64,000 nucleotides of DNA, taken from contig OZ024741.1 in the NCBI GenBank assembly GCA_964016885.1, positions 369,954,001 through 370,018,000 of the forward strand. The letters are read 5' to 3'. The translations under genes were made by a program, and so were the position numbers. Source of the DNA: Eledone cirrhosa (Eukaryota). The notes beneath the pieces are model-generated. The model did not search any database. It had not been told where the DNA came from and saw only the letters and a program-made list of their open reading frames with translations. This document shows, in pieces, positions 1,573 to 62,359 of this stretch (the first letter of the stretch is position 1; the number at the start of each line of letters is the position of its first letter).

Positions 1573-1647
<75 letters not shown>

Positions 1648-1654
1648 TAAATAA

Positions 1655-1870
1655 ATATACACGGGTGTGTATGATTGTGTATAGAAGATTACATTAATAA
1701 AAGGAATTCCAACTTTGTCTGATTTACTCGTTTTATTTACAATCCTTTAAAATTTATAATGGTATTAGAATGAAATAGTATGGTAGAATATTTAATTCTA
1801 AGTGTTAATTGAACAAGTACTTTCATGCTTTCGCAATCTTCAGGTTCATATTCTGTGGTGACAATCAAGT
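1655..1870 (-). mobile_element. TA-anchored element family E (further copies 27150-27268, 27398-27605, 27627-27788)
   Basis: Near-identical sequence at four loci, adjacent to (TA)n/(GA)n; carries an HHR-like motif. Confidence 0.8.
1810..1848 (-). ncRNA. Hammerhead ribozyme-like motif lacking stem II (family E; copy at 27552-27590)
   Basis: Minus strand UGAAC CUGAAGA UUGC GAAA GCAUGAAAGUAC UU GUUCA; stem I UGAAC/GUUCA. Confidence 0.6.
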
Positions 1871-3682: not shown

Positions 3683-4181
3683 CGAAGGAAATGTGGTAAG
3701 GAACCAGGTGGACCATAACGCACTAAAGTACTCAATACTTAGGGTAGTAGAGTGGGTAATAGGAACGAGTAGGACCCCGACGGCTGAGCTCAACCAAAAC
3801 ACAGTCACCCAAACGCGAACACACACCAAACACTATACACACACAAACGCATGCGCAGAGAAGAAGACAAAAATAAATAAATAAATAATCAGATAAAATA
3901 AAAATGGCGTAGACATACAATACAACAGGAGGAACATAATAGTACCACTGATGATGTTGCAGATGTGCAACGAAAGAACTTTGTTAGACTATATATATGT
4001 GTTTATATCTATATTATATCTGTATTTTTGACCGTTGGTCAGTCAATGATAATCATTGAGGACCAAATGAATTAACTGTGGAGATATAAATGATACAGAA
4101 GCGAAAACCAACCAAACAGTGAGTGTGTTCTGTTATTATTTCTGGTAATATGATTACAACAATATGACCCTCCCCAAGTAT

Positions 4182-4188
<7 letters not shown>
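3680..4188. mobile_element. Head-to-head hybrid: family A (-, 3680-3793) fused to family B (+, about 3794-4188)
   Basis: Both arms match other copies in the window; both outer ends run into (TA)n. Confidence 0.75.
3939..3992 (+). ncRNA. Minimal type I HHR, family B (copies 23888-23941 +, 41110-41163 -)
   Basis: CUGAUGA U GUUGCA gaug UGCAAC GAAA GAAC UU; perfect 6-bp stem II; imperfect stem I. Confidence 0.7.
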
Positions 4189-4229
<41 letters not shown>

Positions 4230-7219: not shown

Positions 7220-7440
7220 CATATAACTTTATATATAATATTATATATTTATATATATATGTATATATATATGCATATATATATGTGTGTGTGTGTGAGA
7301 ACATGTGTGTGTGTATGTATGTGTGTGTGCGTATGTGTATGATGGCTGCAAACAAAGGCTAAGAGTATCGCAATCGCTTGTCAGATTCATATGTGTGACG
7401 CTCCGATATGGCTTTTCAAGACCACGAGAGACTTATATAT

Positions 7441-7487
7441 ATTCCTGATGATTTCTCAAGAATGAAACAGTTCTAGTCCTGTAGAAT
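7441..7487 (+). ncRNA. Type I HHR in a TA-anchored element (about 7340-7574)
   Basis: AUUC CUGAUGA U UUCU CA AGAA U GAAA CAG uucuaguc CUG UA GAAU; stems I-III all pair; GUA cleavage triplet. Confidence 0.8.
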
Positions 7488-7572
7488 CTCATCTATATTA
7501 ACTTTTATACTCTGCTATGTATTGAGTACCTTACTTACTGTGGTTACCTGCAATTCAACCCGGAATAACTTA

Positions 7573-8407
<835 letters not shown>

Positions 8408-8409
<2 letters not shown>

Positions 8410-8857
8410 CGTTTCTGAATTTGTTTAGCAAGATTCTTTATCTGAAATCGTGTGTTGAAACCGATATTGTTATACTTTGGGAGGGTCATGTTGCTAATAA
8501 GAAACACACGCACCAGTTGCTTTCACTTCAATTTATTATAATGAATTTATAAATTTATAAATTTCTGGTTGGTTGGTTGGTTCCACAACCAGATAGTTGT
8601 TTATATATTGTCATAGTTCTTTCGTCACACACTCTGTGACCTCTTCAGAAAAGAAAGGAATCCCCAGTCACTGAAGAGGTCACAGAGTGTGTGACGAAAG
8701 AACTATGACAATATATAAACAACTACCTGGTTGTGGAACCAACCAACCAACCAGAAATTTATAAATTTATAAATTTATTATAAATTTATTATAATAAATT
8801 GAAGTGAAAGCAACTGGTGCGTGTGTTTCTTATTGGCAACATGACCCTCCCAAAGTA

Positions 8858-8861
<4 letters not shown>
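8408..8861. mobile_element. Family B' fold-back element (related copy 48018-48465 +)
   Basis: Arms 8408-8648 (-) and 8649-8861 (+) are near-perfect reverse complements over their shared length; TA tracts on both sides. Confidence 0.85.
8667..8709 (+). ncRNA. Minimal type I HHR, family B' (copy 48216-48258)
   Basis: GUCA CUGAAGA G GUCACA gagug UGUGAC GAAA GAAC UA UGAC; stem I GUCA/UGAC. Confidence 0.82.
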
Positions 8862-8927
<66 letters not shown>

Positions 8928-10217: not shown

Positions 10218-10507
10218 TATATATATATACATATATAAATTCATATATATATATATATATATACATATATATATTCATATAATGGAATAGAATGAAATGA
10301 AATTTCATTTCTCACTCTTAGTACAGCACTTACTTAAATGTAAGTATGTATGTATACGTACATACATATATGAATACAGACGTACAGTAGCATGTATATA
10401 TATATATATATATATACATATACATACAGGCACACATATATATATGTACGTATCAGTTTAGCGAACATTCAACTTTCGAACGTTCAACTATCTGGCCGAA
10501 GGGTATA

Positions 10508-10548
10508 CGGTGCTGACGATAGCTAACAAGCTTGAAACTAGTACATCG
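10508..10548 (+). ncRNA. Minimal type I HHR, family G
   Basis: CGGUG CUGACGA U AGCU aaca AGCU U GAAA CUAG UA CAUCG; palindromic stem III ACUAGU. Confidence 0.85.
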
Positions 10549-10962
10549 TTCCTGTGTCAGTGTTCAACAAAAAGATGACGTGGTTGCCTTAACACCGTAC
10601 GGCATAAATCAGGCTGTCCGTTTGTTTACAAACGAACAAAGCGAACATTTTAATAAATGTTCGCTAAACTGATACGTACATATATATATGTGTGCCTGTA
10701 TGTATATATATGTATATATATATACATGCTACTGTACGTCTGTATGCATATATGTATGTACGTATACATACATACTTACATTGAAGTAAGTGCCGTACTA
10801 AGAGTGAGAAATGAAATTTCATTTCATTCTATTCCATTTTATCGTTTTCGGTGCGCCTGGCCGACTGAACTCACTCGATATGCAAATTAGGCTGCTCAGC
10901 CGTTAATTTTCATAAGGAAAATATATACTTTCGAACGTTCAACCATCTGGCAGAAGGGTATA

Positions 10963-11003
10963 CGGTGCTGATGATAGCTAACAAGCTTGAAACTAGTACA
11001 TCG
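10963..11003 (+). ncRNA. Minimal type I HHR, family G second tandem copy (third copy 61247-61287)
   Basis: Same fold with CUGAUGA core. Confidence 0.85.
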
Positions 11004-11240
11004 TTCCTGTGTCAGTGTTGAACAAAAAGGTGACGTGGTTGCCTTAACACCGTACGGCATAAATTCAGGCTGTCCGTTTGTTTACAAACGAACAAAGCGA
11101 ACATTATAATAAATGTTCGCTAAACTGATACGTACATATATATATGTGTGCCTGTATGTATATATATGTATATATATATATATACATGCTACTGTGCGTC
11201 TGCATGCATATATGTATGTACGTATACATACATACTTATA

Positions 11241-11279
<39 letters not shown>

Positions 11280-11467
11280 GATATTAAACAAATGGAAACT
11301 ATATTTATAAAACCATATTTATTTCATTATACATATTTCAGGGATACCATATTAAAAATATGGCATGCCTTCTTCAGATAAAATACAATATATAAGCAGT
11401 TTTATAAATAAATTTGACGTACCATAAATATTGATCAACTTCCATGTACGAAGTTGGTTTATATATA

Positions 11468-13835: not shown

Positions 13836-13873
<38 letters not shown>

Positions 13874-14068
13874 GAGAGAGATATAGGAAAGGAGTCAGGA
13901 TCCCGAGGGCTGAGGTGCGGCCGTTTCGATAGCTAGATCAAGCTGTCGAAACGGCCGCACCTCAGCCGTCGGGGTCCTGACTCTTTTCTTATTACCCACT
14001 CTACAACTCTAAGTATCGAGTACTCTGGTGTGTTATGGTCCACCTGGTAACTTACCTCATCTTCTTTG

Positions 14069-14461: not shown

Positions 14462-14794
14462 AAAGTATGTGTTCCTGCATGTAAATAATATACATAGGGA
14501 TACAAGTATAGTCCGACCGTATGCAAGTGTGGTTCAATGGCAAGTTAATAAATTAACAAGCCAGAACATATAAAATCAAGGAAAAGCAAATAAAGAATTA
14601 TTTACATGCAGAAACACTTCCTTTTATTATTATTCACCCCAACGGTAGAGAAACCTTTGGTCATTTGAACGGCTGCTATTTTTTTTCAGTCTTTGCACAC
14701 GGTACTAGACAAAATTGTTCATCATTCATTTGTTGGGGCAGTTTTGTATGGCGCCAGTTTGTATTTTGAACTCGGGAATCTCCGGGAGAGAAAA

Positions 14795-14876
14795 GCCTTC
14801 TGACGAGGATCTCTTTCTCAATGGAAATCCGCTTGGATTATCTATTTGTTTTGGGATCTGAAACCGCGGTAAAGGC
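14795..14876 (+). ncRNA. Type I HHR with extended stem II loop, in a TA-anchored element (about 14640-14950)
   Basis: GCCUU CUGACGA GGAUCUC (37 nt) GGGAUCU GAAA CCGCGG UA AAGGC; palindromic stem III ACCGCGGU. Confidence 0.85.
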
Positions 14877-14943
14877 ACATATAGTAAGTACAGTGAATGT
14901 TTTGAAATTTATTTTAAAATTTTTTCTTTATTTGCTTTTCCTT

Positions 14944-15016
<73 letters not shown>

Positions 15017-15019
<3 letters not shown>

Positions 15020-15168
15020 TTATTAAAATAACAGATTAAAGTTTAAGCAAAGAATCGCTGCTTTCACCCTTAACGGGATCTTCTGAAACTGGTTAGTTTC
15101 AGAAGATCCCGTTAAGGGTGAAAGCAGCGATTCTTTGCTTAAACTTTAATCTGTTATTTTAATAAATA
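15017..15168. mobile_element. Family C perfect palindrome (about 74-bp arms, GGTT loop)
   Basis: Exact inverted repeat centred at 15091-15094; single arm also at 47947-48015. Confidence 0.9.
15095..15145 (+). ncRNA. HHR-like fold with variant CAGAAGA core (mirror copies 15040-15090 -, 47964-48014 -)
   Basis: AGUUU CAGAAGA U CCC guuaa GGG U GAAA GCA gcgauucuu UGC UU AAACU; all three stems pair. Confidence 0.65.
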
Positions 15169-18370: not shown

Positions 18371-18387
18371 ATATATATATATATATA

Positions 18388-18723
18388 TAGGAAGGATAAA
18401 AAGGGCGATTGATTATTCCTTCATTGCATTTATTGATAGGTGACGCGCGTTTCGCCACTGATCAGCTCAAGGTTCGATCTATATCGATCCTACCGGACTC
18501 AATAATCCGCAGCTCGACGGACCTTCCCGAAATGCTATAAGAAAATGAAATAGCATGTATTTCATTTTCTTATAGCATTTCGGGATGGTCCGTTCGAGCT
18601 GCGGATTATTGAGTCCGGTAGGATCGATATAGATCGAACCTTGAGCTGATCAGTGGCGAAACGCGCGTCACCTATCAATAAATGCAATGAAGGAATAATC
18701 AATCGTCCTTTTTATCCTTTCTA
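18388..18723. mobile_element. Family I near-perfect palindrome (about 165-bp arms) with Penelope-type HHR 3' half
   Basis: Centre near 18555; CGAAACGCGCGTC at about 18657-18669. Confidence 0.85.
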
Positions 18724-18828
18724 TATATTACACTCTGTATAGCTCTACACATCATCACAGAAGTGAACCTAACTAAACATCGAGTGCTCACCCGGGTGAA
18801 CGTGCAGTAACTCCTAGTTACACCCCCT

Positions 18829-21147: not shown

Positions 21148-21437
21148 AATTGGCAGTATCGTTAGAGGATTGGACGCCGTGCTTTCTAGCATAGTTACGT
21201 CCCTTTACAGTCTGAGTTCAAATCCCGCCGAGGTTAACTTTGCCTTTCATCCTTACGGGGTCGGTAAAATAAAGTACCAGTAATGTACTGGGTAACTGCT
21301 GGCCTTGTGCCTAAAGTAGAAACAATTATTTGTTTCTACCTTTGACACAAGGCCAGCAATTCTCCCAGTGTATTACTGGTACTTTATTTTATCGACCCCG
21401 TAAGGATGAAAGGCAAAGTTAACCTCGGCGGGATTTC
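21148..21437. mobile_element. Tail-to-tail Meta-like SINE pair flanked by a 23-bp direct repeat
   Basis: AACTCCAATCTCCATC.TTATTG near 21123 and 21438. Confidence 0.75.
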
Positions 21438-22234
21438 AACTCCAATCTCCATCATTATTGACCATGAGTTTGCACCTAGCAAGTGACTCTGCAGGAAGCA
21501 AGGCCCCCACCCTGAGTCTAAGGCCCCCACTCGGTCACGAATGACCATGGTTTTGCACCTAGAAAGTTTCCCTCCGAGGGACAAGCCTGGGCAAGGTTTG
21601 TTTTGTGGAAGACCAGTAGTCACCCATGCATCCCAGTCTCCCCTCTCCATGTCACCAATGTTGTCCAAGGGAAAGGCAATGACCGATACAGCTTGGCACC
21701 AGTGACGGGGCAGCTCATTTCTACAGCTAAGTAAACTGGGGCACCATGAAATAATGTGTCTTGCTCAAGGGCACAACACATAACCCGGTCTGAGAACGAA
21801 CTCACAACCTCTCAATTGCAAGCCCGATATTCTAACCACTAAGCCATCGCCTTAACCCTTCTGAGTAAACCAGGACAATATGAAATAAAGTGTCTTCCTT
21901 AAGAACAACGCGTTGCCCGTTCCGAGAACCGAACATCCTAACTATAAACTACACTATTTCACAGTACAACAATATATAGGCGGAGAATTCTGCATAGTGG
22001 TTAGCATATCAGATAGATGCCATTGTGGTTCACGCTGCTCTGATTTCAAATCCCACCGAGGCCACGTTCGCCTTTCAGCCGATAAATACAGAATCGTTAA
22101 TGCGTAGGACAAAATACTTTGCAACATTTAGCTTCTGCTTTTTACATTCTAGTATTTTTATATTCTAGTATTTTTATATTCTAGTATTTTTATATTCTAG
22201 TATCTATAATTTTTCCAGAGTTGATAAATATGGT

Positions 22235-23705: not shown

Positions 23706-23740
<35 letters not shown>

Positions 23741-23744
<4 letters not shown>

Positions 23745-24183
23745 ATACTTGGGGAGGGTCATATTTGTGAAATATTGCCAGAATTAATAACAGAACACAC
23801 TCACTGTTTGGTTGGTTTTCGCATATATAAATATATAAACAGACTAAATAAAGATGGCGTAGACATACAATGTAACGGGAGGAAACAATAGCACCACTGA
23901 CGATGTTGCAGATGTGCAACGAAAGAACTTTGATAAACTATATATATGTGTTTGTGTCTATATTGTATCTGTATTATTTTTGACCGTTGGTCAGTCAATG
24001 GCAACATTGAGGACCGAATAAATTAGATTACCGATATAAAAGACACAGAAGCGAGAAGCGAAAACCAACCAAACAGTGAGTGTGTTCTGTTATTAATTCT
24101 GGCAATATTACACAAATATGACCCTCCCCAAGTATAACAATATTTGTTTCGACACACGATTTCATATAAAAAACCTCGCAAAA

Positions 24184-24188
<5 letters not shown>
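23741..24188. mobile_element. Family B fold-back element (another at 40875-41370)
   Basis: Left arm 23741-23822 is the reverse complement of about 24058-24140; TA tracts on both sides. Confidence 0.85.
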
Positions 24189-24764: not shown

Positions 24765-24812
24765 ATTTTATCTGATGAGTGCGTACCAAAGTTTTGGTAC
24801 CCTTGAAATATA
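24765..24812 (+). ncRNA. HHR truncated by (TA)n at stem III (related intact copy 51583-51642)
   Basis: UUUUAU CUGAUGA GUGC GUACCAAA G UUUUGGUAC CCUU GAAA UAUAUA... Confidence 0.6.
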
Positions 24813-27023: not shown

Positions 27024-27146
<123 letters not shown>

Positions 27147-27293
27147 TTATTAATAAGAGGAATTCCAACTTTGTCTGATTTACTCGTTTTATTTACAATC
27201 CTTTAAAATTTATAATGGTATTAGAATGAAATAGTATGGTAGAATATTAAATGTTAAGTGTTAATTGAATATATATATGTGTGTGTGTGTATA

Positions 27294-27389
<96 letters not shown>

Positions 27390-27812
27390 TAGATAGATAA
27401 ATATACACGGGTGTGTATGATTGTGTATAGAAGATTATATTAATAAGAGGAATTCCAACTTTGATTTACTCGTTTTATTTACAATCCTTTAAAATTTATA
27501 ATGGTATTATAATGAAATAGTATGATAGAATATTAAATGTTAAGTGTTAATTGAACAAGTACTTTTATGCTTTCGCAATCTTCAGGTTCATAATGTGTGG
27601 TGACATATATATATAGAGAGAGAGATAAATATACATGGGTATGTATGATTGTGTATAGAAGATTATATTAATAAAAGGAATTTCAACTTTGTCTGATTTA
27701 CTCGTTTTATTTACAATCCTTTAAAATTTATAATGGTATTAGAATGAATAGTATGGTAGAATATTAAATGTTAAGTGTTAATTGAATATATATATGTGTG
27801 TGTGTGTATATG

Positions 27813-27888
<76 letters not shown>

Positions 27889-28139: not shown

Positions 28140-28452
28140 CGAGGGAATTGTGGTAAGGAACCAGGTGGACCATAACGCACCAGAGTACTTAATACTTAGG
28201 GTAGTAGAATGGGTGGTAGGAAAAGGTATGACTCCGACGGCAGAGCTCAAGCTGTTTCGACGGCTATTTCAGGACTAAATTAGAATTTTTAGCATGGTAA
28301 ATAAATAGCCGAACTTATTACAATCTTCCCATATAAGGAAGTTCCCCTTGATAAGTTCGGCTGTTTATTTACCAGGCTAAAAATTCTAATTTAGTCCTGA
28401 AATAGCCGTCGAAACGGCTTGAGCTCTGCCGTCGGGGTCATACCTTTTCCTA
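28138..28452. mobile_element. Family A fold-back containing the complete ribozyme
   Basis: Left arm 28138-28318 (-), right arm about 28340-28452 (+). Confidence 0.85.
28344..28437 (+). ncRNA. Type I HHR with U3-A8 core (UUGAUAA) and long stem II, family A
   Basis: CCCC UUGAUAA G UU CGGCUGUUU ... AAAUAGCCG UC GAAA CGGC uugagcucu GCCG UC GGGG; stems I, II and III pair. Confidence 0.72.
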
Positions 28453-30189: not shown

Positions 30190-31460
30190 ATTCTGGAGGC
30201 AGATAACATCAAGGAAAAAAAATGAAGGTGATGATAATATCTAAATACACCAAGAGAATATGGAACATACTAAAACCATAACTGAATAGTAGAACCCCAT
30301 AAGTGCAGTAAATTCTCAAGCTGTGTCTATCATTAGGTACAATGCGGCAATTCTTAAATGGAATGTAAGCGAGCAAAAAGAACTGGATAGAAAGACAAGG
30401 ACATTAATGACCACCTACCGTATGTTTCATAAGAAGTGTGATGTTGATAGACTGTACTTAAGGAGATCTGAAGGAGGGAGATGTCTAATTAGCATGGAGG
30501 ATTGTGTTCAGATGGAGAAGAGCTGTCTACACAAATATGTGTCTGAGAGTAATGAGCCAATGCTTAAGGCTGTGTTGATGGGGGAGACAATAGACCAGGG
30601 TATGTCCAAGAAATCAGTAACAACAAAGAGAAAGAGCAACCTGAATGAAAAGGCCCTTCATAGCATCTCTTTAAAGAAAAGAGAATTCAGAGATCCGCAG
30701 ACATGTAATTGGTTAAAGAAAGGGGACCTTAAGAAAGCCACAGAGGGAATGCTACTGGCTCCCCAGGAGAAAACCCTTAGAATTAAGTCGATGAAACACC
30801 ATATTAACAAGGAGGAATATAACCCACATTGTAGGATTTGTGGAGAGAGAGAGAGGAAAGTGTAGCTCACATCGTATCCGAGTGTAAACATCTAGCCCAG
30901 ACTAACTATAAAGGATGGACGCCTGATATAGGTAAAGTGATTCACTGGCATTAATACAAACTGAATAAGTTACCTCATTCTGAGAAATGATATGAGCATA
31001 AGCCAGAGTCGGTAATAGAAAACGACCGGATGAAGGTGATGTGAGATTTCAAGATACAAATGGTCAAGGAATTAGAACATAATAGGCCTGACCGGGTGGT
31101 TTTTAACAAGGAAAAAATATATTGCTTGATTGTAGATGTAGCTTGCCCATTTGACACAAGGGTGCAAGAATAGAAGGAGATAATTAATTGGTAACAGAAT
31201 GAAAAGAATTTGGAAATGTCATGAGATCAAAGTCGTCCCAATCGCCATAGGAACACTAGGTACTATCTCGAAGGGCTTCCAAGACTAGTTAAAGAACATT
31301 AGCCCAGCTCCCCTTTTTTTTTAACACTCCAGAAAGCATGACTACTAAGAACAACAAGGACTCTCTGATATGTCCTGAATATCTGAGGTTGCAGGTAGCG
31401 GCTTGATGTTCATTAGGGCAAATTTTACGGTTAAATAACATCAATGACTGAGACATCAAA
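30190..31460 (+). mobile_element. R4/Dong-clade non-LTR retrotransposon, 3' part (pseudogenised)
   Basis: DVDRLYL.RSEGGR.L; CRICGE..E.V.HI.SEC (CCHC); HNRPD.VV......C.IVDVACP restriction-like endonuclease motif; ends in (TAA)n. Confidence 0.85.
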
Positions 31461-40041: not shown

Positions 40042-40108
<67 letters not shown>

Positions 40109-40111
<3 letters not shown>

Positions 40112-40271
40112 AACCAGTAAGACCCCGACAGCTGAGCTCAAGCCGTTTCGAAACGGCTTGAGCTCAGCTGTCGGGGTCTTACTGGTTCCTATTACCCACT
40201 CTACTACCTCAAGTATTGAGTACTTTGGTGCGTTATGGTCCACCTGGTTCCTTACCACATTTCCTTCGTTA
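40109..40271. mobile_element. Family A perfect fold-back centred on GTTTCGAAAC
   Basis: No spacer; symmetry axis near 40149-40150, immediately before the HHR GAAA box. Confidence 0.88.
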
Positions 40272-40520: not shown

Positions 40521-41394
40521 AAACACAAAAAAGGGTTATGTTTTCATTTACCAGATTTTTTATATTTTAATTTTACCTCTTAATTATTATGTATCTTCTC
40601 CACTTTTCGTAGACCTTATATCCTTCACTATTGTGGTTCTCTACTCCTTGTAAATGAAAACATAACCCCTTTTTGTGTTTTCTTCGCTATATACTGAATT
40701 ATTGAGAGCCGGGTAATTTCATCCTTGAGCTCATAAAATTACAAGGGATTAACACGAGCCTTTAACTCCGTTTTTTTCAATATATATATATATATATATA
40801 TATATGCCAACGAAATCACTAAGACAACAATATTACTAAACCGACTACCGTCGGTTTAGGATAACGGCTATGAATTAGTTTTGCGAGGTTTTTTATCGTG
40901 TGTCGAAACAAATATTGTCATACTTGGGGAGGGTCATATTTGTGTAATAATATTGCCAGAAATAATAACAGAACATACTCACTGTTTGGTTGGTTTTCGC
41001 TTCTGTGTCCTTTATATCGGTTAATTTAATTTATTCGGTCCTCAATGTTACCATTGACTGACCAACGGTAAAAAATACAGATATAATATAGACACAAACA
41101 CATATATATATAGTCTAACAAAGTTCTTTCGTTGCACATCTGCAACATCGTCAGTGGTGCTATAATGTTTCCTCCCGTTGCATTGATGCCTACGCCATCT
41201 TTATTTAGTCTGTTTATTTATTAAATAATGGTAACATTGAGGACCGAATAAATTAAATTAACCGATATAAAGGACGCAGAAGCGAAAACCAACCAAACAG
41301 TGAGTATGTTCTGTTATTACTTCTGGCAATATTATTACACAAATATGACCCTCTCTAAGTAAAACAATATGTATATATATATATATATATATAA

Positions 41395-42101: not shown

Positions 42102-42452
42102 TCCCGTAACTCCTAAGGGAGTCGTAGAGGCACCGTATATTGACATTTTCTAGGACATTTTAAAACCTGGTGGAGCCAAAACGAATACTGCAATGCATTC
42201 TATTCAACGTTCTGCCAATTCGCCGCCTGTTTCGGCATTACTTCCGATTAATTGTAAAGCATTTAGTTGGATATGTTTTGTGATTACGTTTAGCTTTCTG
42301 TATCTTTTACCTTAAGAATATCTTTCATATCTTCCACCTATACCTACGTAAACACATTAAGCTTTGTATAAGACTATTTGACAATCATATAGACTCTTCT
42401 ATGCTAATAGAATTATAATTTTACCTTGCTCTCTCTCTCTATATATATATAT

Positions 42453-43373
42453 ATACAAGGATCGGAATTAAGAGTATTCCGCAGTTCACAGTAATAATAA
42501 TAATATTAGCTCAAAGAAGAATAGAGAATTTTCTTCTGAGCTCAAATACAAATATATTACACAAAGAGAAGTGTGTTACACAGTGAGATGTGTGTAAAGA
42601 ATTATTACAAGTGAGTTTAACCGTTACTGTATGGAGAACAATATCTACATGTTAGCAATTAAATAGAAAAAAGCTAAGTCAGAATCAAATCTCTGAAGTA
42701 GAGTTTTAAATTACCAACCTTATAACTATAAGCTTGCTGATACGAATCTAGTTCGTTTCGCCACAGAAATGTGCAGTTTAACAGCCCACAGATTCCTCAG
42801 TCAGCAAGTGTGGATTCTGTTCACGACACATCTAACCTCATGGATAGAGAGAAAGCTAATATACACGCTGCCCAGAGTAGGGCGAAATCACGTGTTATTT
42901 GCATCAAATAACGGCTTTCATGGATTGGGGGAAATGCTAGAGAGAGCAGCCCAACCATTCGAATTTATTAGCTCAACAATTTGGAGCTCGTTAAGTATAC
43001 AAGGATGGGAATTAAGAGTATTCCGCAGTTCACAGTAATAATAATAATATTAGCTCAAAGAAGAATATAGAATTTTCTTCTGAGCAAGCTTATAGTTATA
43101 AGGTTGGTAATTTAAAACTCTACTTCAGAGATTTGATTCTGACTTAGTTTTTTTCTATTTAATTGCTAACCTGTAGATATTGTTCTCCATACAGTAACGG
43201 TTAAACTCACTTGTAATAATTCTTGACACACATCTCACTGTGTAACACACTTCTCTTTGTGTAATATATTTGTATTTGAGCTCAGAAGAAAATTCTGTAT
43301 TCTTCTTTGAGCTAATATTATTATTATTACTGTGAACTGCGGAAAACTCTTAATTCCGATACTTGTATACTTA
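42453..43373. mobile_element. Family K: 544-bp unit (1.16 tandem copies, minus sense) plus inverted arm 43083-43373
   Basis: TACAAGGAT.GGAATTAAGAG at 42454 and 42998; right arm is the reverse complement of 42453-42738. Confidence 0.85.
42733..42808 (-). ncRNA. Type I HHR, family K
   Basis: CUUGCUGA CUGAGGA (34 nt) GAAA CGAA cuaga UUCG UA UCAGCAAG; 8-bp stem I, 5-bp stem III; stem II pairing uncertain. Confidence 0.78.
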
Positions 43374-43739
43374 GAAAAACACTTAGAAAAAAAGTTTGTA
43401 TCACTAGAGTGAGTGAGCGGGAAGGAACCAGCCAACCAGCGAGCCAGCCAACAAACATAGATTTTGCAATTAACCGTCATTTTTGACGGCACGGGATCAG
43501 CAACTATATAATAAAAGACCTATAAGTTTTAAAAAGCCGGGACAAAGCGATAGAAATATATCATGTTGAAATATACTTTGTTTTCTTTTATTTCTCATCC
43601 TTTTCCCTTTATATGTTTCAACTGCATTGTACCGGCTTTTTGAAACTTATCTGTCTTTTATTACATATCCCACAATGCTTCGTATCAACTATACTACTTT
43701 ATATATATATATATGTCTATATATATATTTATATATATG

Positions 43740-43906: not shown

Positions 43907-44335
43907 GATATCACAGAAAAAAGATAATCAGTGTTGCGACGAAAGGAATTTATTGGATATATTACAATTGTTTCTCGGGCGACCAGCTCGAGGCACGATC
44001 GATGTGGTGATCAAATCTGACTCTGAAATCATCCGGTCCTCGGATACGTCTCGATTCTACGAAGCAGATTTTCGTATAGGAAATCCAGCGTTCTAAGATT
44101 CTTCACAGCTGTGTGTTTGTATCACTAGAGTGAGTGAGCGGGAAGGAACCAACCAACCAACCTATAGGAAAAATCTGCTTCGTAGAATCGAGACGTATCC
44201 GAGGACCTCGCGATTTCAGAGTCAGGTTTGATCACCATATCGATCGTGCCTCGAGCTGGTCGCCCGAGAAACAATTGTAATATGTCTAATAAATTCCCTT
44301 CGTCGCAACACTGATTCTCATTTTTCTGTGATATA
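43907..44335. mobile_element. Family J fold-back (about 170-bp arms) with HHR 3' half GAAACAATTGTA
   Basis: Arms 43907-44080 and 44163-44335. Confidence 0.8.
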
Positions 44336-44580: not shown

Positions 44581-45143
44581 TAGGGTTCTTATATATTTGA
44601 TATATATTTATCCATATCGAGCCTCGTGAAATAAATACGTTTGTTTATATTTTGTTTATTGTGTATGCAAAAATATCTGTACACGAATATATAATTATAT
44701 ATATATAACAGTACAGAGAAGTACGGAATACCCCCGCCTCGGGATGGTGTCTACATTTTGTTCTTATAAGAAAAATTCGTCATAGATTACCAGGGTTTTT
44801 TTTTTCATGCGAAGAAAATCAATACTTTATCACGAAATAAATACTTTTGTTTATATTTTGTTATTGTGTATGCAAAAATGATATATATTTATCCTTATCC
44901 AGCCTCGTGAAATAAATACGTTTCTTTATATTTTGTTATTGTGTATGTAAAAATATCTGTACACGAACATATAATTATATATATATATATAGTATAAAAT
45001 ATAAAAGAGAAAACACAGGTAAGCATTAAGAGACGGATTTTATCCAGGTATTTACGACTGTTTCATTGGTAAGTGCAACCTTATATTGCTATACTGCAAT
45101 TATAATTGTTGTTCACAATGGAATTATTGTCAAAGCGGACAAA

Positions 45144-47078
45144 ATGGAATTATTGTCAAAGCGGACAAAACCTCAAATGTGTATACGATGGATGTTAATA
45201 CATACAATAGCTTCATACGGAAAGAATTACACTTAGGCGATGTACCCCCACATTTAATCTCAAGGACAACAAGGTAAATTTTGATTATAACCCCACAATT
45301 AGACTTATATGCCCGTCCAGATCGGACATCGGGAAAATTAGTAAACATATATTAGACAGAGTGATAGCACAAATGAAGAATAAACTAGTGATTAAACTAT
45401 GGGGTAACGCTACCGAAACAATTAAGTGGTTTAACAATATAGCTAACAAAAAAGTATCTAAATTTATACAATTTGACAACATTAACGACTATTACTCCTC
45501 TATATCCTCCAACACCTTGGATAAAGCCTTAGCATTCGCCAAAGCCAATTCTGACCTAACAGACGACGAGATAAAAATCATATTAGCTGCTAGGAAAACA
45601 ATAATTAAATTTGAAAACGCCTATTGGGAACGTAAGGATAGATTAAATAACTTCACGATGGGGGCTAACCACTCGGCTCAAGTCACAGATTTAGTAGGTA
45701 TTTACATAGCCCATAGTTTACAGAGTGAGTTTAGTGATCTTCACGGTGGAATCTACAGAGACGACACTCTTCTCCTAGTTAAGAACCTAAATAACCAGAG
45801 CATAGAAAGACTTCGTAAGAATATTAGAAAGACTCTCGGGAAACTAGGCCTTAGCATAACGTATGAGTATAGCACTAAAACAGTTAACTTTCTAGACGCG
45901 ACGCTTAACCTAAATACGGGACTTATAAGACATTTTCACAAGATTAATGAAAACTTAGCATACATCAACTGTAACTCAAACCACCCACTATCCATAATTA
46001 AATCCATTCCACGTAGCATATCCCTTAGGATCTCCCGCCTCTCGTCTAACCGACAAATCTTCGAGGAACATGCAGAATACTACAATACCGCATTAGACAA
46101 GGCAGGCCACTTAAATAGAGTAGAATATATAGATGAAAGCCTCCGTAAAGGGCACACGAACACGCATAACACAAACTCCAGAAACACACGCACACACGCA
46201 CACACGCACTTACGCATAGAACTACAAAGTATACGGTAAATAAAAATACAACATCGAAATCAAACAAGTCACGCAGTAGGAAATATATTTGGTATAACCC
46301 CATATTTAGCACCTCTATTAGTACTAACCTACCCTCTACCTTCTTTAGAATAATAAATAAGCACTTTCCAGATTCATACAGATACAGCAAAATCCTTAAC
46401 ACTAAATCTATTAGACTATCTTACTCCACTGCACCAAATATAGAGGCACACATTAAGATGCTTAACGCTAAAAAGATACATAACAACACCAGAACACAAA
46501 TTTACAACAATAACAATACAATCACCATTGAACACAACAGAATATCTAATACACAACCACCCACTAATAGGCAAACAAAACGTAACACACTTGTCCAGGC
46601 ATCGCAGCCCACCAATAATGCCAAAGTTGCCCATGACAAGAATTGTAACTGCCACCTACCTGAAACCTGTCAATTACATAATGAATGTATGCAGTCTAAC
46701 CTGGTTTACCAATGCACAGTGTAATCAGACAACCAGAAATGGTATTACATCGGAGCGACTGGGAATACATTTAAAGCCCGTTGGTATACACACCGTTACG
46801 TAATGAAACATTCCCAGCATCGTTATATAACTACCCTTGCAAACAAGACCTGGCAACTGAGGGAAAGTAACCATCAATACACCCTGAAGTGGAAAACATT
46901 ATCGAACGCGACCCCATATCGGAGTGGTATGAGAAGCTGTCGATTATGTGACCTTGAGCTGTTCCACATTTTGAGTTCGAAGAATAAGTTACTCAACAAT
47001 AAAATCGAAAGATAAATTTATTGTAACCATAGACTCAAAGAAAAGTTTTCGCACTACAAGTGCAAATCGAACCCTTAA
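45144..47078 (+). pseudogene. PLE reverse transcriptase + GIY-YIG endonuclease ORF, disrupted
   Basis: IVKADKT; FIQFD..DYYSSI; TMG; GIYRDD; VNFLD.TLNL; YIN..SNHP; then CNC....C....C...NLVY....YYIG.T...FK.R, CRLC..E; contains frameshifts and stops. Confidence 0.9.
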
Positions 47079-47626
47079 TCTCTTACTACCAACTGACAAA
47101 CTGCATATACTTAGACTTTATACCCTCTTGTTGTATCTAAACCCTTTTAATTACCCACAAAACCCAATACCTATATCCCTCCCTACTCCTTCATTCCTCT
47201 TCTATTTCTTCGTTTTCTTCCTTCCTTCCCCTTTTTGGCTATCTTTTCTTTTCTTCTTTCTCCCCCCTTCTTTGCTTTTATTTTTGTCATTATTATCTTT
47301 ATCGTTATTTTTTTATATATATATATTTATCTCTTTATATCTCCCTCCTCTCTCTCTCTCTCTCTCTATCCATCCCTCCCACTATGATCAATTTAATTCT
47401 CTTTAACTCACTACATTCCACGACATGAAGTCTACATATCAAAACTGATCAAGAAATCCTTCCACCTCTAGCCCTCCCTCCATCTCAGTTTGTCACTCTA
47501 CTTCCTAACTCTTCCCCCTTCCTCTCTCTCTATACTATTCCGTTTGTCCCCTCACCTTCTAGTAAATACTCCAAAAAAATGTTTTTCTCTATATATTAAG
47601 AACTATTTCAAGAGTAACTTACTCAC

Positions 47627-47728
47627 TATTTTGAAAATTTGGACTGTGAACAACAATTATAATTGAGTGGCTGCTATTTGCAGTATAGCAATATAAGGTT
47701 GCACTTACCAATGAAACGGTCGTAAATA
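47627..47728 (+). ncRNA. Putative pLTR HHR with U3-A8 core (UUGAAAA) and long stem II
   Basis: UAUU UUGAAAA U UUGG ... CCAA U GAAA CGGUCG UA AAUA. Confidence 0.55.
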
Positions 47729-47917
47729 CCTGGATAAAATCCTTCTCTTAATGCTTACCTGTGTTTTCTCTTTTATATTTTATACTTTATACTCCAAGAT
47801 TGATCGGAATTCTTACAAACTTGTGGAGTTACCCCTAATCGTACGTTGAAACCATCCATGAAACTGGCTTTCTTAACCACGAACTAGATCACAATAAGCA
47901 ATTTTCTGCTTCCCTAG

Positions 47918-47952
<35 letters not shown>

Positions 47953-48469
47953 TAACCGATTAAAGTTTAAGCAAAGAATCGCTGCTTTCACCCTTAACGG
48001 GATCTTCTGAAACTAAAATTAAAAAAATCAATCTGTGAACGCAGATCTAAATATTTCGAAAACGTTGCAACAAAAGAAAACAGGAAGACGATACTTTGGT
48101 TCGTGAAGATGTTCCCTGACATAAGAATATATATATATACACAACACACACACAAAAACAAGAATGCGTAGGACAGAACAAAGGAGAGGCACAAAAACAA
48201 AGAAAAGAATCCCCAGTCACTGAAGAGGTCACAGAATGTGTGACGAAAGAAGTTTGACAATATATAAACAATCATCTGGTTGTGGAACCAACCAACCGGA
48301 AATTTATAAATTCCTAAATTTATAAATTTATTATAATAAATTGAAGTGAAAGCAACTGGTGCGTGTGTTTCTTATTGGCAACATGACCCTCCCAAAGTAT
48401 AACAATATCGGTTTCAACACACGTTTTAAGATAAAGAATCTTGCTAAACAAATTCAGAAACGAAATATA

Positions 48470-51582: not shown

Positions 51583-51642
51583 TATTTTATCTGATGAAAG
51601 TATACTATAATTTGGTATCCTTGAAATATGTATAATAAAATA
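51583..51642 (+). ncRNA. Type I HHR in a TA-anchored element
   Basis: AUUUUAU CUGAUGA AAG..UAC...GUA..CUU GAAA UAUGUA UA AUAAAAU. Confidence 0.7.
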
Positions 51643-51829: not shown

Positions 51830-52610
51830 TCGTTCCATAATCAATGGGAAGAATCCCAAGTATTAGAAATCGCTAACATATCTTAGCAATGATGAGAACT
51901 CAAATGTATCTCTCGATGACGAGATAATCAATCATATAGGGAAAGCCATGGGTGCATTTTGGCAAACTCCGTCATCATCTTTGGATTCAGGACATAAACC
52001 TGGACACCAAGATATAGGTTTATATAGTTGCTACACTCTTATATATATTGGACCCCCATATAGTTCACATATCAACCAATTAGACGTCTTTTATAAAGGT
52101 TACCTTCGGGCAATCTGTTGGTATATAGACAAAATATCTAACACTGACCTCTTCAGTAAGTGCAATAATGGAGGCATTGAGTCATTTCTTATGAAATCAC
52201 AACTACGCTGAGCTGCTCACGTCTTTGGAATGAGTGACAAGAAATACCAAAAGTCCTCATGTACAGCCACCTTGAAGGTGGATATAGAAATGTTGGACGG
52301 CCACAGCTCAGATACAAAGACAAGCTAAAGAGTAACTTTTCAACAATCAATATACCTTATAATAGATTTGAGCAAGTGGCTTTAGAACGGAAGGATTGGA
52401 GATATGTGTCATAATGGGATCAGGAACTTCGGGTCTGGTTGCCTCAATCAGCTACAAGAAAACCAGCAAAATTGTCCAGTAGTCCTCCTCACCCTTGCAT
52501 GACCTGTGAACTTGCTTACAGATATTTCGCACGACTAAAATGTCATGCCCAATGAAAACATCCAAAATAAATAGGATTCCCATACACCGAAATAATCCAC
52601 GGGAGAGTCC
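51830..52610 (+). mobile_element. RTE-BovB-like LINE 3' fragment (decayed)
   Basis: SLDDEIINHIGKA.GAF; DKISNTD; IESFLMKSQLR; GYRNVGRPQLRYKDKLK; A.ERKDWR. Confidence 0.8.
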
Positions 52611-52612
52611 AT

Positions 52613-52697
<85 letters not shown>

Positions 52698-52699
52698 GT

Positions 52700-54688
52700 A
52701 TCAAACTATACCAATCTTTTCGTTGGCCATGTTGAGGCCCAAATCTTTGCCCAGTACACCGGCCCCACGCCCGAACTGTACGGTCGTTACATCGACGACT
52801 GTATCGGAGCCACGACCCTCACCCGAGAACAGCTCGACTCCTTTCTCTCCTTCTTCTGCTCCTTCCACCCTCTCCCTCCACTTCACCACCTATATCTCCA
52901 CCACCCACGTCCACTTCTTAGACATCTCCGTCGCCATCGACCCCTCCCACCACTCCCTCGTCACCTCCGCCTTCTTCAAACCCACCGACTCCCACACCTA
53001 CCTCGACTTCACCCCCTCCCACCCTACACACACTAAACACTCTATTCCCTACTCCCAACTCCTCAGTATCTGCCGCCTCTGCAGCCGAGATGCTGACTTT
53101 GAGTCCCAGGCCCTTTCCCTAGTCAGCCATTTCATCCGCAGAGGTTACCTCCTTCCCTCGTCCACACCGCCCTCATTCGCACCCGTGTTGTCCACCGCTC
53201 CACCACTCTCACCCCACGCCACCGCACACCCACCCACCGTCTCCCCTTCCCCATCACCAACCACTTTGGCTCCCCTGGATATTCCGCGCAACACCTCACA
53301 GTCTGTGGCCTACTCCAATGCCACGAAACACCACTAACCCTCATCCACACATCCACTTCAACCACCCCACAACTAATACCACTAACATCCCCCCGACTCC
53401 ATGCATACGAACACACACACCAACCCACACCCACTTACACCACCCACTCTACACACCCTACCACCACTGACCCCCACTAACACACCCGCATTCAAACCAT
53501 TCCCCACCACCAGTATACTAACACCCACTAACACGCCCTTCACCATACACACACTCATCCAAACACGCACACACACACCAGTACACTACACTCCTTCCAC
53601 CGTCCCCCACACCTTTTCTCTCCCTCTCCCCGCTCCACCCACACACCTTCACATACACACATCCCACTAATACCTCTACTAATACACACCTCATCCCCCC
53701 GCATGACCCCCTCCCACTCTACCTTTCACACCTACCCATCCACTCCCCTGTCCACCGCACCTCCGCACACACTGACACACTGACTTTCTCCACCTGCCAT
53801 TCTCCTCTACTGCTGCTATGCCTTGACCCTCTGACCACTTCTCCGCACACACAGACACACAGTTCTCTCCACCTGTCATTCGCCTCTGCCCTCATCATGC
53901 CTTGATCCTCTGACCACTTCCTGTTGCGCGCACACCCCATATCTTCCTTCTTCCGACTACCACAACCACGGATTACACACCAGTGGCCATCGTTCCCACT
54001 ACCTTCTACATATCGTGGAAAATATCCGGCAGCTCTTCACACCCTCTACGAAACTACCTTAGGAACTTACCCATGGACATACACTCACAAACATTTTTTT
54101 CGAACCACGCCACCTACATCCACAAAACGTATAAACACCAACAAACACGTGCGTACGCCCACATATATACACACTCAGCTCCGGAAACCTCTCCCCCCTC
54201 CCCACCCCTCGGACCCCTTCCCATCCACACGCACGCACATACCGACCTAAACCCCACCCCCCACACACACACCTTTTCCTGAAAATGGAACCTCATTCTT
54301 CCCCCAACTCTCACATTCACATACACACACACACACACGTACACCTACACACATACACCACCTTTAGTCCTCCCCGCTCGGACACCCCGCCTCCCTCTCC
54401 TTAATCCACCCGCCACCACCCCTACACGCCCCACACCCTTCCACCACTTGTTTATCTTCATGTTTATTTTAATTTTTTAAATTTTTATTTGTACCCCTTT
54501 CACCGCCCCCCCCCCCTTTTCTAAATCTCTCTCCTCCACTCCCCTGCACACCCTCGGAACTCTCTTCCCACCCACTTTACGCCTGAAGAAGGGCCTATGC
54601 CCGAAACGTCGTCTCCCCCACTCTCAAGAGCGTGAAACTAATAAACCTTTGTTTGTACTGCCTCTCTGTTTTGTTCCCGTTCCATTTT

Positions 54689-56555: not shown

Positions 56556-57163
56556 TGTGGGGAAAGCCGGTATAAAGTTAGAAATAAAGTAGTGAAGGTT
56601 AGAATCAAGTAAAATAAAACTAAACAACAGTTCTATGTATGTATTCCTTAGCTGAGTCATATGTTTAAAATATTTTAGTGAGGGCTAGCTCTCGTCACTT
56701 ATGTAATACCGAGGAAAGGAAGTAACACGTACAACCTCTCCCCCATATCCATGCACATGAACATTCAGAGAGAAGGACACAAACACACCATACGCAGCTC
56801 ACACACACATGTAATATGTAAGTGTATGTTTGTGTAAATTATACATGCATGTATACATACATAGAGATATAAACATTATATGTATATAATATATATACAT
56901 GTATATACACATATATCGATATAAATACTATGTATATATGTATATCATATATATACATATAACAAAGAGGGTGTGGTAAGATACCAGGTGGACCATAATG
57001 CACCAGAGAACTCAATACTTAGGGTAGTAGAGTGGGTAATATGATAAGAGTCAGCCCCCCGACGGCTGAGCTCCGGCCGTTTCGACAGCTAGATGCGAAA
57101 GAGTTCGGATTTAGCTGTCGAAACGACCGGAGCTCAGCCGTCGGGGTCTTGATTCTTTTCATA

Positions 57164-57667
57164 TCTATATATATAAAGTTGTAGTTCCTGTCTGTTTGTT
57201 TGTTCACGAACTCCTCCTATAGTTTTGGAGATAGACCCCCATAACCATATATATTCTGAAACTACATTGCCCGGGGTACTTGGATAAGTATATTTTAATC
57301 ATTTTAATCAAAGGGTTCCTCTGGGGCACAAACCCCCGCTGAAAATCCACACTGAAATCTTTTTCCCTTCGGTTTATACGAAATTTAAACCATAGGTAAA
57401 TGACAAGATATGATGCCTATTCACAAAAGTTTTGAATTGATATTTTGAAAAAAAAAAGAAGCATAAGAAAAGGATTTAATAATATAATTTTGATTTGATA
57501 TATTACAAAAAATAATGTTTTCCAATTTTTTATGCATTACATTTTACATTGAGTAATATTGAAATGTTTTCTCCATAAATTATATTACTGATTTAAAATC
57601 AATCATCATGTTCTTACAAAAAAATAAAAATGTGTGAAACGCAGCAAGGCGCGGGTAATTCGGCTAG
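57164..57667 (+). mobile_element. Non-autonomous Helitron
   Basis: A|TCTATATATATAAAG...CTGTCTGTTTGTTTG start; GC-rich subterminal hairpin-like segment and CTAG|T end. Confidence 0.75.
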
Positions 57668-60400: not shown

Positions 60401-61151
60401 TCTGTCTGACCTAATGCCACTTTCACACAAGCAATCCCATCTCATTCGTATTTCCTCCTCTTAGCATTCATATTGTGTACAAAACCCAGACCTCGCTCTC
60501 ACCCCTGCGCCCTATCCTTCCTCTACAGAAAGCCATTTTTCTGGAGTCTGCATAGGTCTTAGGTACAGTCCTTTCCTCCAAAATAAGCCCGGCCACACGC
60601 GAAAAAAGGACGCGAAAATTTCTAATTGGAAGTGAATTAAAAGTAATATGTATTGAATATCGTTTAACGTATATATATATATATATATATATATATACCC
60701 GGACCCCTGGAGTGATGGTAAGATCCAGTATTTGGGTTTCTGCGGCTCCATAAGCCATTTACTGTCCGCTTACGTAAAGGATGTTAGGCTTCTGGTAGGG
60801 TGACCGAACTAGGAGGACGCGTTGTCAACGGGATTCAGTTCGATAGTCTACATAAATGTGTCTGTTACTGACCCCACGTGGAGTTCAGCAAGGGAGGCAA
60901 CACCTGTATTAGGCGAATGAATTCAGTTGTGTATAATATTGCGAAAATACAAAATATCACAAATCGAATAAAGCTCTCGACAGATATATATATATATATC
61001 GAGTGAGTTCTGTCGGCCAGGTGTACCGAAAACGATAAGTTGTAATAAAATGAAAACGAAATTTCATTTCTCACTCTTAGTACGGCACTTACTTAAATGT
61101 AAGTATGTATGTATACGTACATACATATATGTATACAGATGTACAGTAGCA

Positions 61152-61191
<40 letters not shown>

Positions 61192-61197
61192 CAGAAG

Positions 61198-61232
<35 letters not shown>

Positions 61233-62359
61233 GGCAGAAGGGTATACGGTGCTGATGATACCTAACAAGCTTGAAACTAGTACATCGTTCCTGTGTCAGT
61301 GTTGAACAAAAAGGTGACGTGGTTGTCTTAACACCGTACGGCATAAATTCAGGCTGTTCAGTTTGTTTACAAACGAACAAAGCGGGCGTTATAATAAGCG
61401 TCCGCTAAACTGATACGTACATTGGTGGAGAGCCGTTTGTGAATAAGAGAATGAGAGTCAGACAGACAGACTACGCACGGTAGTATATATAAATAAATAC
61501 AATCAACCGGAAATCAAAAAACCAAAACAAAAGTAGGTGTCGCATGCAGTTAAGTAAAAAATTTAGGAAACAAACCCGGATAAATGACTAGAAAACCCTA
61601 TTAAATTATTAATATTGAAAGTAAATAAAATACATAATAAGTCCATACAAATTTAGCTATGGTTTAAGTAATCAAAATCCCCTAATTTAAATATATCACT
61701 ATAAAAATATATCTGGAAAAAATGAAATATTCAACTATCAGTTGAATAACGTTATCTAATAAACAGGCTTTAAATAGAATTATGGTAGGCCAATGGGGAC
61801 AGAAACAAGAAATGTATGGAGGATATGAAAGAGCATAAAATCATAATCAACATACTGTATTGTACAATAGAAAGGAGCATAAAAGGGAATTGGATATAAT
61901 TATAGTATATTTGAAGGGGCGAGTGACAAGTAAGTATGTGTGTGCGTGGGGGGGGGGGGGTTAGTTATTCAAAGAAGAAACCAAATAAAATAAAATAGAT
62001 TAAAATAAAATATATAATCAGATATAAACTCATAAGGTGTTAATAGTGAAAATATAAAATTTAAGAAGATAGAAATGGTATGGTACCCAAAAGATTATGA
62101 AAGCTATAATGAAAAGATGTCAAAAGCCAATGATAAAAATGATGATAATGATGGTGGTAAACATAATAAAGCTTAACTAAAAGGTAAGGTAATGTAGCAG
62201 CTAATGGATACAATTTACACTTCTAGAACTTTTAGGTTTATAATAAAAGTAAGAATTTGAAATGGCGTGGGGGCAAGAAGAGAATATCTCTGACTTTCTA
62301 TTAAGTAAGGTTTCCCTAAAGAAAATACTCTAAATAAATATATATATATATATATATAT

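Follow-up and report, generated by a model that had tools for sequence, protein, structure and literature searches.

We analyzed a 64-kb stretch of Eledone cirrhosa DNA (here referred to as the window), which was AT-rich and dense in microsatellites and short repeat families. At 42452-43373 it contained a composite insertion, here named element K, consisting of a 634-nt body on the minus strand and a 291-nt inverted copy, which were joined head-to-head via the trinucleotide AGC. The outward ends of the element were the 3' ends of both copies. The individual features are compiled in Table 1.

Table 1. Coordinates of the features found at element K within the window
Feature	Position	Strand	Remarks
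Type I hammerhead motif	42733..42808	-	stem I 8 bp, core CUGAGGA, GAAA, stem III 5 bp
Predicted self-cleavage site	42740..42741	-	GUA^U; from hammerhead consensus
Main body	42452..43085	-	634 nt = 1.165 units; 5'-truncated at 43085
Full unit	42452..42995	-	544 nt, 36.6% GC
Partial second unit	42996..43085	-	90 nt, pseudo-LTR-like direct repeat of 42452-42541
Inverted arm	43083..43373	+	291 nt, 5'-truncated; from +2 after the predicted cut to the element 3' end
Arm extension	43370..43373	+	4 nt; matches internal unit (42995-42992), absent at the left end
Head-to-head junction	43081..43085	.	3-nt microhomology AGC (43083-43085), or 4/5 nt if the arm reached the cut
Hairpin	43053..43085	+	its base lies where the body is 5'-truncated
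Left boundary	42428..42455	.	(CT)n(TA)n microsatellite, probable target

The body read through 1.16 units, as the initial annotation had noted, and crossed the ribozyme cut site without a scar. The same annotation had described the 544-bp unit as tandem. A repeat was indeed present, with 90 nt recurring at a spacing of 544 and differing at 2 of 90 positions, but the locus carried 1.165 copies with a single ribozyme and formed no array. With longest ATG ORFs of 45 aa (sense) and 89 aa (antisense) the unit is non-coding. Comparison with 35 proteins of the kind encoded by Penelope-like elements (PLEs) by tblastn gave no real match (0/35; best E 0.17), and no further copies of K were found in the 64-kb window by blastn.

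The inverted arm was continuous with the sense sequence from 43083 onwards. Its start 2 nt past the predicted cut, with AGC common to the body, agreed with the earlier description. The junction sequence TGAGC matched TCAGC, the first five bases past the cut, at four of five positions, so that the arm possibly starts right at the cut, one base being mismatched. Both arms (42452-42738 and 43083-43369) differed at 6 of 287 positions. Five of these six differences were transversions, compared to 20 of 48 in 11 other inverted pairs. A single hairpin-loop position (42524 / 43068 / 43297) carried G, T and C (plus orientation) in the three copies of the 90-nt repeat, respectively. The three-base site and the excess of transversions may reflect different template molecules. 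Since the arm extends 4 nt beyond the left end, it was probably primed separately on RNA and not copied from the body.

The left end of the element was blurred, as it merged into the (TA)n. A target-site duplication of at least 6 nt was not found, and the left and right flanks had no 6-mer in common. The right flank (43369-43438) showed a short duplication overlapping the last bases of the arm, followed by 45 nt common to the spacer of 43908-44334. The latter is another inverted-arm element, which lacks a hammerhead core.

Hammerhead motif of element K

The minus-strand hammerhead with a GUA^ cut that had been proposed initially was recovered as a motif. Stem I is formed by 8 Watson-Crick pairs (42808-42801 with 42740-42733), and the core boxes CUGAGGA and GAAA are located at 42800-42794 and 42759-42756, respectively, which fits the conserved core CUGANGA / GAAA / NUH. 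A motif as strict as this one occurred in none of 5000 dinucleotide shuffles of the element and in none of 40 shuffles of the whole window.

Helix II, whose weakness the initial annotation did not mention, was non-canonical. The closing pair of a canonical helix II is usually G10.1-C11.1. In element K we found either an A.C mismatch followed by U-G and C-G, or a 5-bp helix (G-C first) after an insert of 19 nt. Helices II of 2 bp and a U.U mismatch at the closing position are tolerated in active hammerheads (PMC3088659), and many Hydra-clade PLE hammerheads carry U.U at that position (PMC8557442 File S2). By eye, the lengths of stems I and III and the CUGAGGA...CGAA core of K resemble Hydra-clade hammerheads of the same file.

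Folding of the 76 nt resulted in -11.2 and -14.6 kcal/mol for the two hammerhead folds versus -23.3 kcal/mol for an inactive fold. The active fold is thus disfavoured by 8.7-12.1 kcal/mol, and misfolding is predicted. The pair probability of stem I was 0.95 for the isolated 76 nt, 0.43 in a 106-nt and 0.03 in a 201-nt context.

At the gathering score Rfam gave no match in the whole window. At E <= 10 there were seven matches in 42400-43420, no hammerhead among them; for the window as a whole the matches at this threshold were microsatellite-driven noise, with no hammerhead among the 150 of 472 listed. We also used a covariance model (R1) made from 10 other hammerheads of the window (84% of cells paired; 0/500 shuffles). 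It recovered its training set, one extra copy of family A (see below) and a new motif at 7437-7491. The K motif was not recovered in the window by this model, which is weak evidence as its 76 nt face 47 model positions. A ribozyme-pattern scan of bacterial and archaeal genome contigs yielded two loci, both chance matches lacking stem III or a cut site. Judged by its sequence, the K motif is clearly hammerhead-derived, and its self-cleavage is a prediction.

Other hammerhead families and retroelements in the window

Besides K, at least six hammerhead families were present. Family D (27028-27884 and 1597-1863, minus strand) carried Hydra-style hammerheads with cores at 27585 and 1843. Two of its direct copies (27786, 27269) start 1 nt past the predicted cut, right behind (TA)n. 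This end was probably one event that was duplicated, the second looking like a local duplicate or a hybrid. Family C (10277-11242 and 60996-61422) comprised a 455-nt head-to-tail dimer (10472-11242) with two hammerheads, an inverted arm and a tail of ~39 nt.

The three bodies of family B (40870-41370, 23737-24188 and 3873-4189) all start 102-109 nt upstream of the cut, a common position that suggests a fixed transcription start. The family has a CUU cleavage triplet and a tail restricted to one arm. In family A (8408-8866 and 48199-48454) the first nucleotide of the inverted arm is also the first of the hammerhead core (-35), which means that the template of this arm was uncleaved; a tail of ~50 nt was present on one arm. 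Other hammerhead-like motifs were located at 14792-14879 (+), 7437-7491 (+), 51583-51642 (+), 11320-11385 (-), 24772 (+) and 54583 (+). The copy at 24772 ends in (TA)n near its own cut site.

Further repeats were devoid of a hammerhead. At 7677-8352 a 173-bp unit was present in 2.9 identical copies, together with a 170-nt inverted arm (almost one unit) and a 40-nt tail; no hammerhead core was found here. Near-perfect palindromes flanked by (TA)n were located at 15017-15168, 18383-18728, 21214-21442, 28217-28452, 40107-40192, 13872-14003, 57039-57164 and elsewhere, and are consistent with head-to-head pairs of truncated retro-copies that belong to families in which no ribozyme was detected.

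A broken, 5'-truncated Hydra-clade PLE spans 44986-47791, with the RT at 45211-46239, an endonuclease region reaching to 47057 and a CxCX5C linker. An inverted copy of its 3' end was found at 44986-45117 with a 26-bp duplication at the junction, so that this remnant, 1.8 kb from K, has the same inverted-end design. No hammerhead was detected within it. The only named relative among 35 matches of the nearby retroelement protein was from the cephalopod Argonauta hians (42% identity). Decayed RT-like frames at 52510-54620 were assigned by eye to a second PLE, probably of the Penelope/Poseidon type, with a minimal hammerhead at its end near 54583, and a decayed LINE-like fragment near 30.3 kb (30293-30865) was likewise labelled by eye; Pfam gave no support for either. 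For five ORFs of the window and four homologues Pfam returned no meaningful family. A bacterial promoter scan of the window stayed at chance level (3 vs 4.5) and is irrelevant here.

Affiliation with PLEs and non-LTR retrozymes

We are highly confident that element K, in its class and its overall geometry, is a non-autonomous monomer of the PLE/non-LTR retrozyme type. The architecture published for PLEs combines a partial tandem with an inverted, 5'-truncated copy, inserted into (TA)n. The class, which had been left unnamed in the initial annotation, is therefore already known, and the element is less surprising than it first appeared. PLEs feature a partial tandem (pseudo-LTR), an inverted 5'-truncated copy, an optional tail of 30-40 nt, a hammerhead within the repeat and targets of the (TA)n type (PMC8557442). 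The partial tandem as such is an ordinary PLE pseudo-LTR (PMC8557442; PMC8969392), and an inverted 5'-truncated copy at the PLE 5' end as well as microhomology junctions have been described (PMC3846280).

Like EN+ PLEs, K has a pseudo-LTR, an inverted 5'-truncated copy, a type I hammerhead near its 3' end and a (TA)n target, and its junction, again as in PLEs, shows microhomology but no duplication of the target. The Hydra clade is the nearest PLE group as judged from the style of the ribozyme and from the target. Unlike autonomous PLEs, K has no RT-endonuclease ORF (RT plus GIY-YIG), and in contrast to PLEs with a tail of 30-40 nt its tail comprises 4 nt. Compared to PLEs, its ribozyme is located 290 nt from the 3' end and has a weak helix II. 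For six short motifs taken from K, family C and family D, the PMC8557442 supplement contained no exact match. Alignment of K with 10 regions of the window including the neighbouring PLE gave no significant result (4 or more of 60 shuffles reached the observed score in every region and on either strand). None of the PLEs of the window could be linked to K by sequence, so its mobilising partner is one that we infer.

Non-LTR retrozymes are non-coding hammerhead units that are expressed as circles and for which PLE machinery has been proposed (PMC7229834). With units of 51 to 972 bp, they are regarded as derivatives of PLEs that are moved in trans (10.64898/2026.07.22.740005). K resembles the metazoan members in its non-coding unit of a few hundred nt, which lies within this size range, its low GC and its type I hammerhead. 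With 36.6% at 544 nt its GC content is below the limit of 45% given for retrozymes (PMC7229834). Active non-LTR retrozymes have been defined as two or more units in succession that all carry a complete hammerhead; K with its 1.165 units and one ribozyme lies outside this strict definition and corresponds to a 'monomer' in the same terminology (10.64898/2026.07.22.740005). Going by sequence, family C falls within the two-ribozyme definition and is the best circRNA candidate of the window. A further difference is the inverted arm of K, as the word 'inverted' has 0 occurrences in PMC7229834. Opposite-strand hammerheads 100-700 bp apart and the hypothesis of a circular template were already put forward in PMC4209133.

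K also resembles the Anolis Poseidon PLE (PAc; PMC11167929), where RT starts internally 3' of the hammerhead, both target strands are primed and the target is AT-rich. For PAc, insertion was normal with mutated ribozymes, RNA that had not been processed was the main substrate in vitro, and none of the RNA-seq reads began or ended at the cut (PMC11167929). Cleavage was thus dispensable there in vitro, and K would be the opposite case. A parallel to K is R2, where the ribozyme cut sets the 5' junction of genomic copies (PMC3774820). Unlike K, R2 is a LINE and a coding element that carries an HDV-like ribozyme at its 5' end, and it has no inverted arm. In L1 twin priming the two opposite strands each prime a cDNA, and the two cDNAs become joined through microhomology; the inverted piece is a different, upstream part of one RNA. 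Unlike this, the two pieces of K share one 3' start site and overlap.

The arm end and the templates of both copies

We propose that K would be a single insertion of a non-autonomous PLE, mobilised in trans by the reverse transcriptase/GIY-YIG endonuclease of a PLE that probably belongs to the (TA)n-targeting Hydra clade. In a reconstituted PLE system both target strands are nicked and then extended, and RT begins at an internal RNA position 3' of the hammerhead (PMC11167929). By analogy to that study, both target strands would have been nicked and RT would have started internally at about +289 to +293 nt past the cut. One cDNA of 634 nt would have crossed the intact cut site and stopped at the base of the hairpin. 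The other would have stopped at +2 (or at +0 with one mismatch) after 291-293 nt, as a run-off of RT from the RNA 5' end made by the hammerhead. Joining of the two cDNA 3' ends by a microhomology of 3-5 nt would then have led to the head-to-head structure. To the whole course, cleaved template included, we give an even chance.

The long copy needs an intact junction, which could derive from uncleaved read-through RNA, from a ligated circle or from a precise jump, and the sequence is unable to choose among the three. An uncleaved read-through RNA is about evenly poised between right and wrong, a religated circle is a tentative possibility and a precise template jump appears unlikely. Neither a unit-length RNA nor a circle of 544 nt can originate from the K locus itself, since there is only one ribozyme. 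Multi-unit read-through needs no ribozyme, as the 173-bp unit without a hammerhead core reached 2.9 copies plus an inverted arm. Of the circular or multimeric template suggested in the initial annotation the read-through beyond one unit stands, but a linear uncleaved transcript is enough to account for it and a circle is not required.

That the template of the arm was an RNA with a hammerhead-made 5' end is plausible but unproven, and we see the case as evenly balanced. The arm comprises exactly the stretch between the cut site and the 3' end of the element, which is what internal RT initiation (PMC11167929) on cleaved RNA would produce. Uniform truncation would place the arm end within +0 to +2 with a probability of 1.1%. 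Twelve sites could pair with the three terminal nt of the body, and the site used was the weakest of them (-2.9 vs -9.3 kcal/mol for the best). Microhomology alone therefore did not pick this site, which argues for a pre-existing end at the start position of the arm. The proposal that the arm end is a fossil of a cleaved 5' end thus held in so far as the geometry fits and the available tests were survived; it relies on this one junction and one similar end (family D), and against it stand the six other arms, none of which starts at its cut, and a ribozyme that is predicted to misfold.

The foremost alternative, to which we give a limited chance, is the same PLE-type insertion with an arm that was randomly 5'-truncated and joined by ordinary microhomology, the distance of 2 nt being a coincidence. 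The inverted arms of the other hammerhead-bearing elements indeed ended at scattered positions (-35, +53, +65, +112, +127 and about +155), with 0/6 at the cut. About seven elements could have shown the coincidence and K was singled out for showing it; AGC occurs at 12 sites per unit, and the ribozyme copy of K looks impaired. Opposed to this are the low chance calculated above for the K arm alone, the use of the weakest of the 12 candidate microhomologies and the second end at +1 in family D, which was the one among 14 independent non-K 5' ends to lie within 2 nt of the cut. For at least two of seven downstream ends so near the cut, uniform truncation gave P = 0.006, a value obtained with a 3-nt window chosen post hoc and with K picked for the trait. 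Leaving K aside, at least one of six such ends gave P = 0.11, which is not significant. The census of 5' ends did not include family E (ends blurred by AT repeats), the rows P54583, P57945, G23254 and H44482 (cut position rough or motif unconvincing) and single-copy ends without comparison (7445 motif, F body, 48199).

The reading as a cleavage fossil is weakened by the poor helix II, the disfavoured active fold, the missing Rfam hammerhead match and the uncleaved template in the PLE study. Among retrozyme dimers of Xenopus, 8/9 were without cleavage in vitro (10.64898/2026.07.22.740005).

A stall of RT within the folded, uncleaved ribozyme domain, where stem I is met first, is a rather unlikely second explanation; the end would then reflect structure and not cleavage. 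The 76-nt domain at -23.3 kcal/mol is closed by stem I, which is stably paired in isolation, and both +2 (K) and +1 (family D) lie inside stem I. The body of K, too, ends at the base of a hairpin, and uncleaved RNA was the dominant template in vitro (PMC11167929). On the other hand, the pair probability of stem I falls in the longer contexts given above, the stop would be expected nearer to +7, the start of the helix, and the same structure was passed by the copy that gave the body.

Self-priming, in which the first cDNA (or an antisense template) folds back at AGC and copies itself, has been proposed for inverted junctions of PLEs (PMC3846280) and needs a single RT event; we consider it improbable, as a far better partner was available 30 nt off while the used site ranks 12 of 12, the last 4 nt of the arm are missing at the left end, and self-copying cannot make the 38-55-nt tails that are restricted to one arm in families A, B, C and the 173-bp array. 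An origin without retro-insertion (MITE/foldback DNA element, replication-slippage inversion or assembly artefact) might be suggested by the long terminal inverted repeats, the microsatellite-rich window and the transversion excess between the arms, but is highly improbable given that the two arms are not symmetric and lie within a partial tandem, with a hammerhead exactly at the arm boundary, that the target-site duplication of a MITE or TIR transposon is absent, that the design is common to many unrelated hammerhead families of the window, and that an arm divergence of 2% argues against collapsed reads.

Run-off from a hammerhead-made 5' end would bear on the role of the hammerhead in PLEs, which has been stated as open (PMC8557442, PMC7761336). 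From a single insertion, K hints at a cut RNA that was copied back into the genome. In the literature covered, outside of which most subscription journals lie, we found no report on a pile-up of 5' ends at PLE hammerhead cuts. The wider view that hammerhead-cleaved RNAs are real RT templates of PLEs in the genome of Eledone cirrhosa, with some inverted pseudo-LTRs as exact copies from cut site to RT start and the long arm as a copy of a religated circle, is speculative and we regard it as doubtful. If true, such inverted pseudo-LTRs would be run-off products akin to strong-stop DNA, and the models of internal initiation and of circular intermediates would be joined. Genome-wide maps of 5' ends would then show, for the first time in vivo, which of the PLE hammerheads are able to cleave.

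The main value of the fossil idea is that it offers a cheap genome-wide test. Without a pile-up, K would be an ordinary PLE derivative among many in the genome. Should genomic 5' ends prove to accumulate at the cut, computation alone would suffice to test what the hammerhead does, family by family, in any PLE-rich genome.
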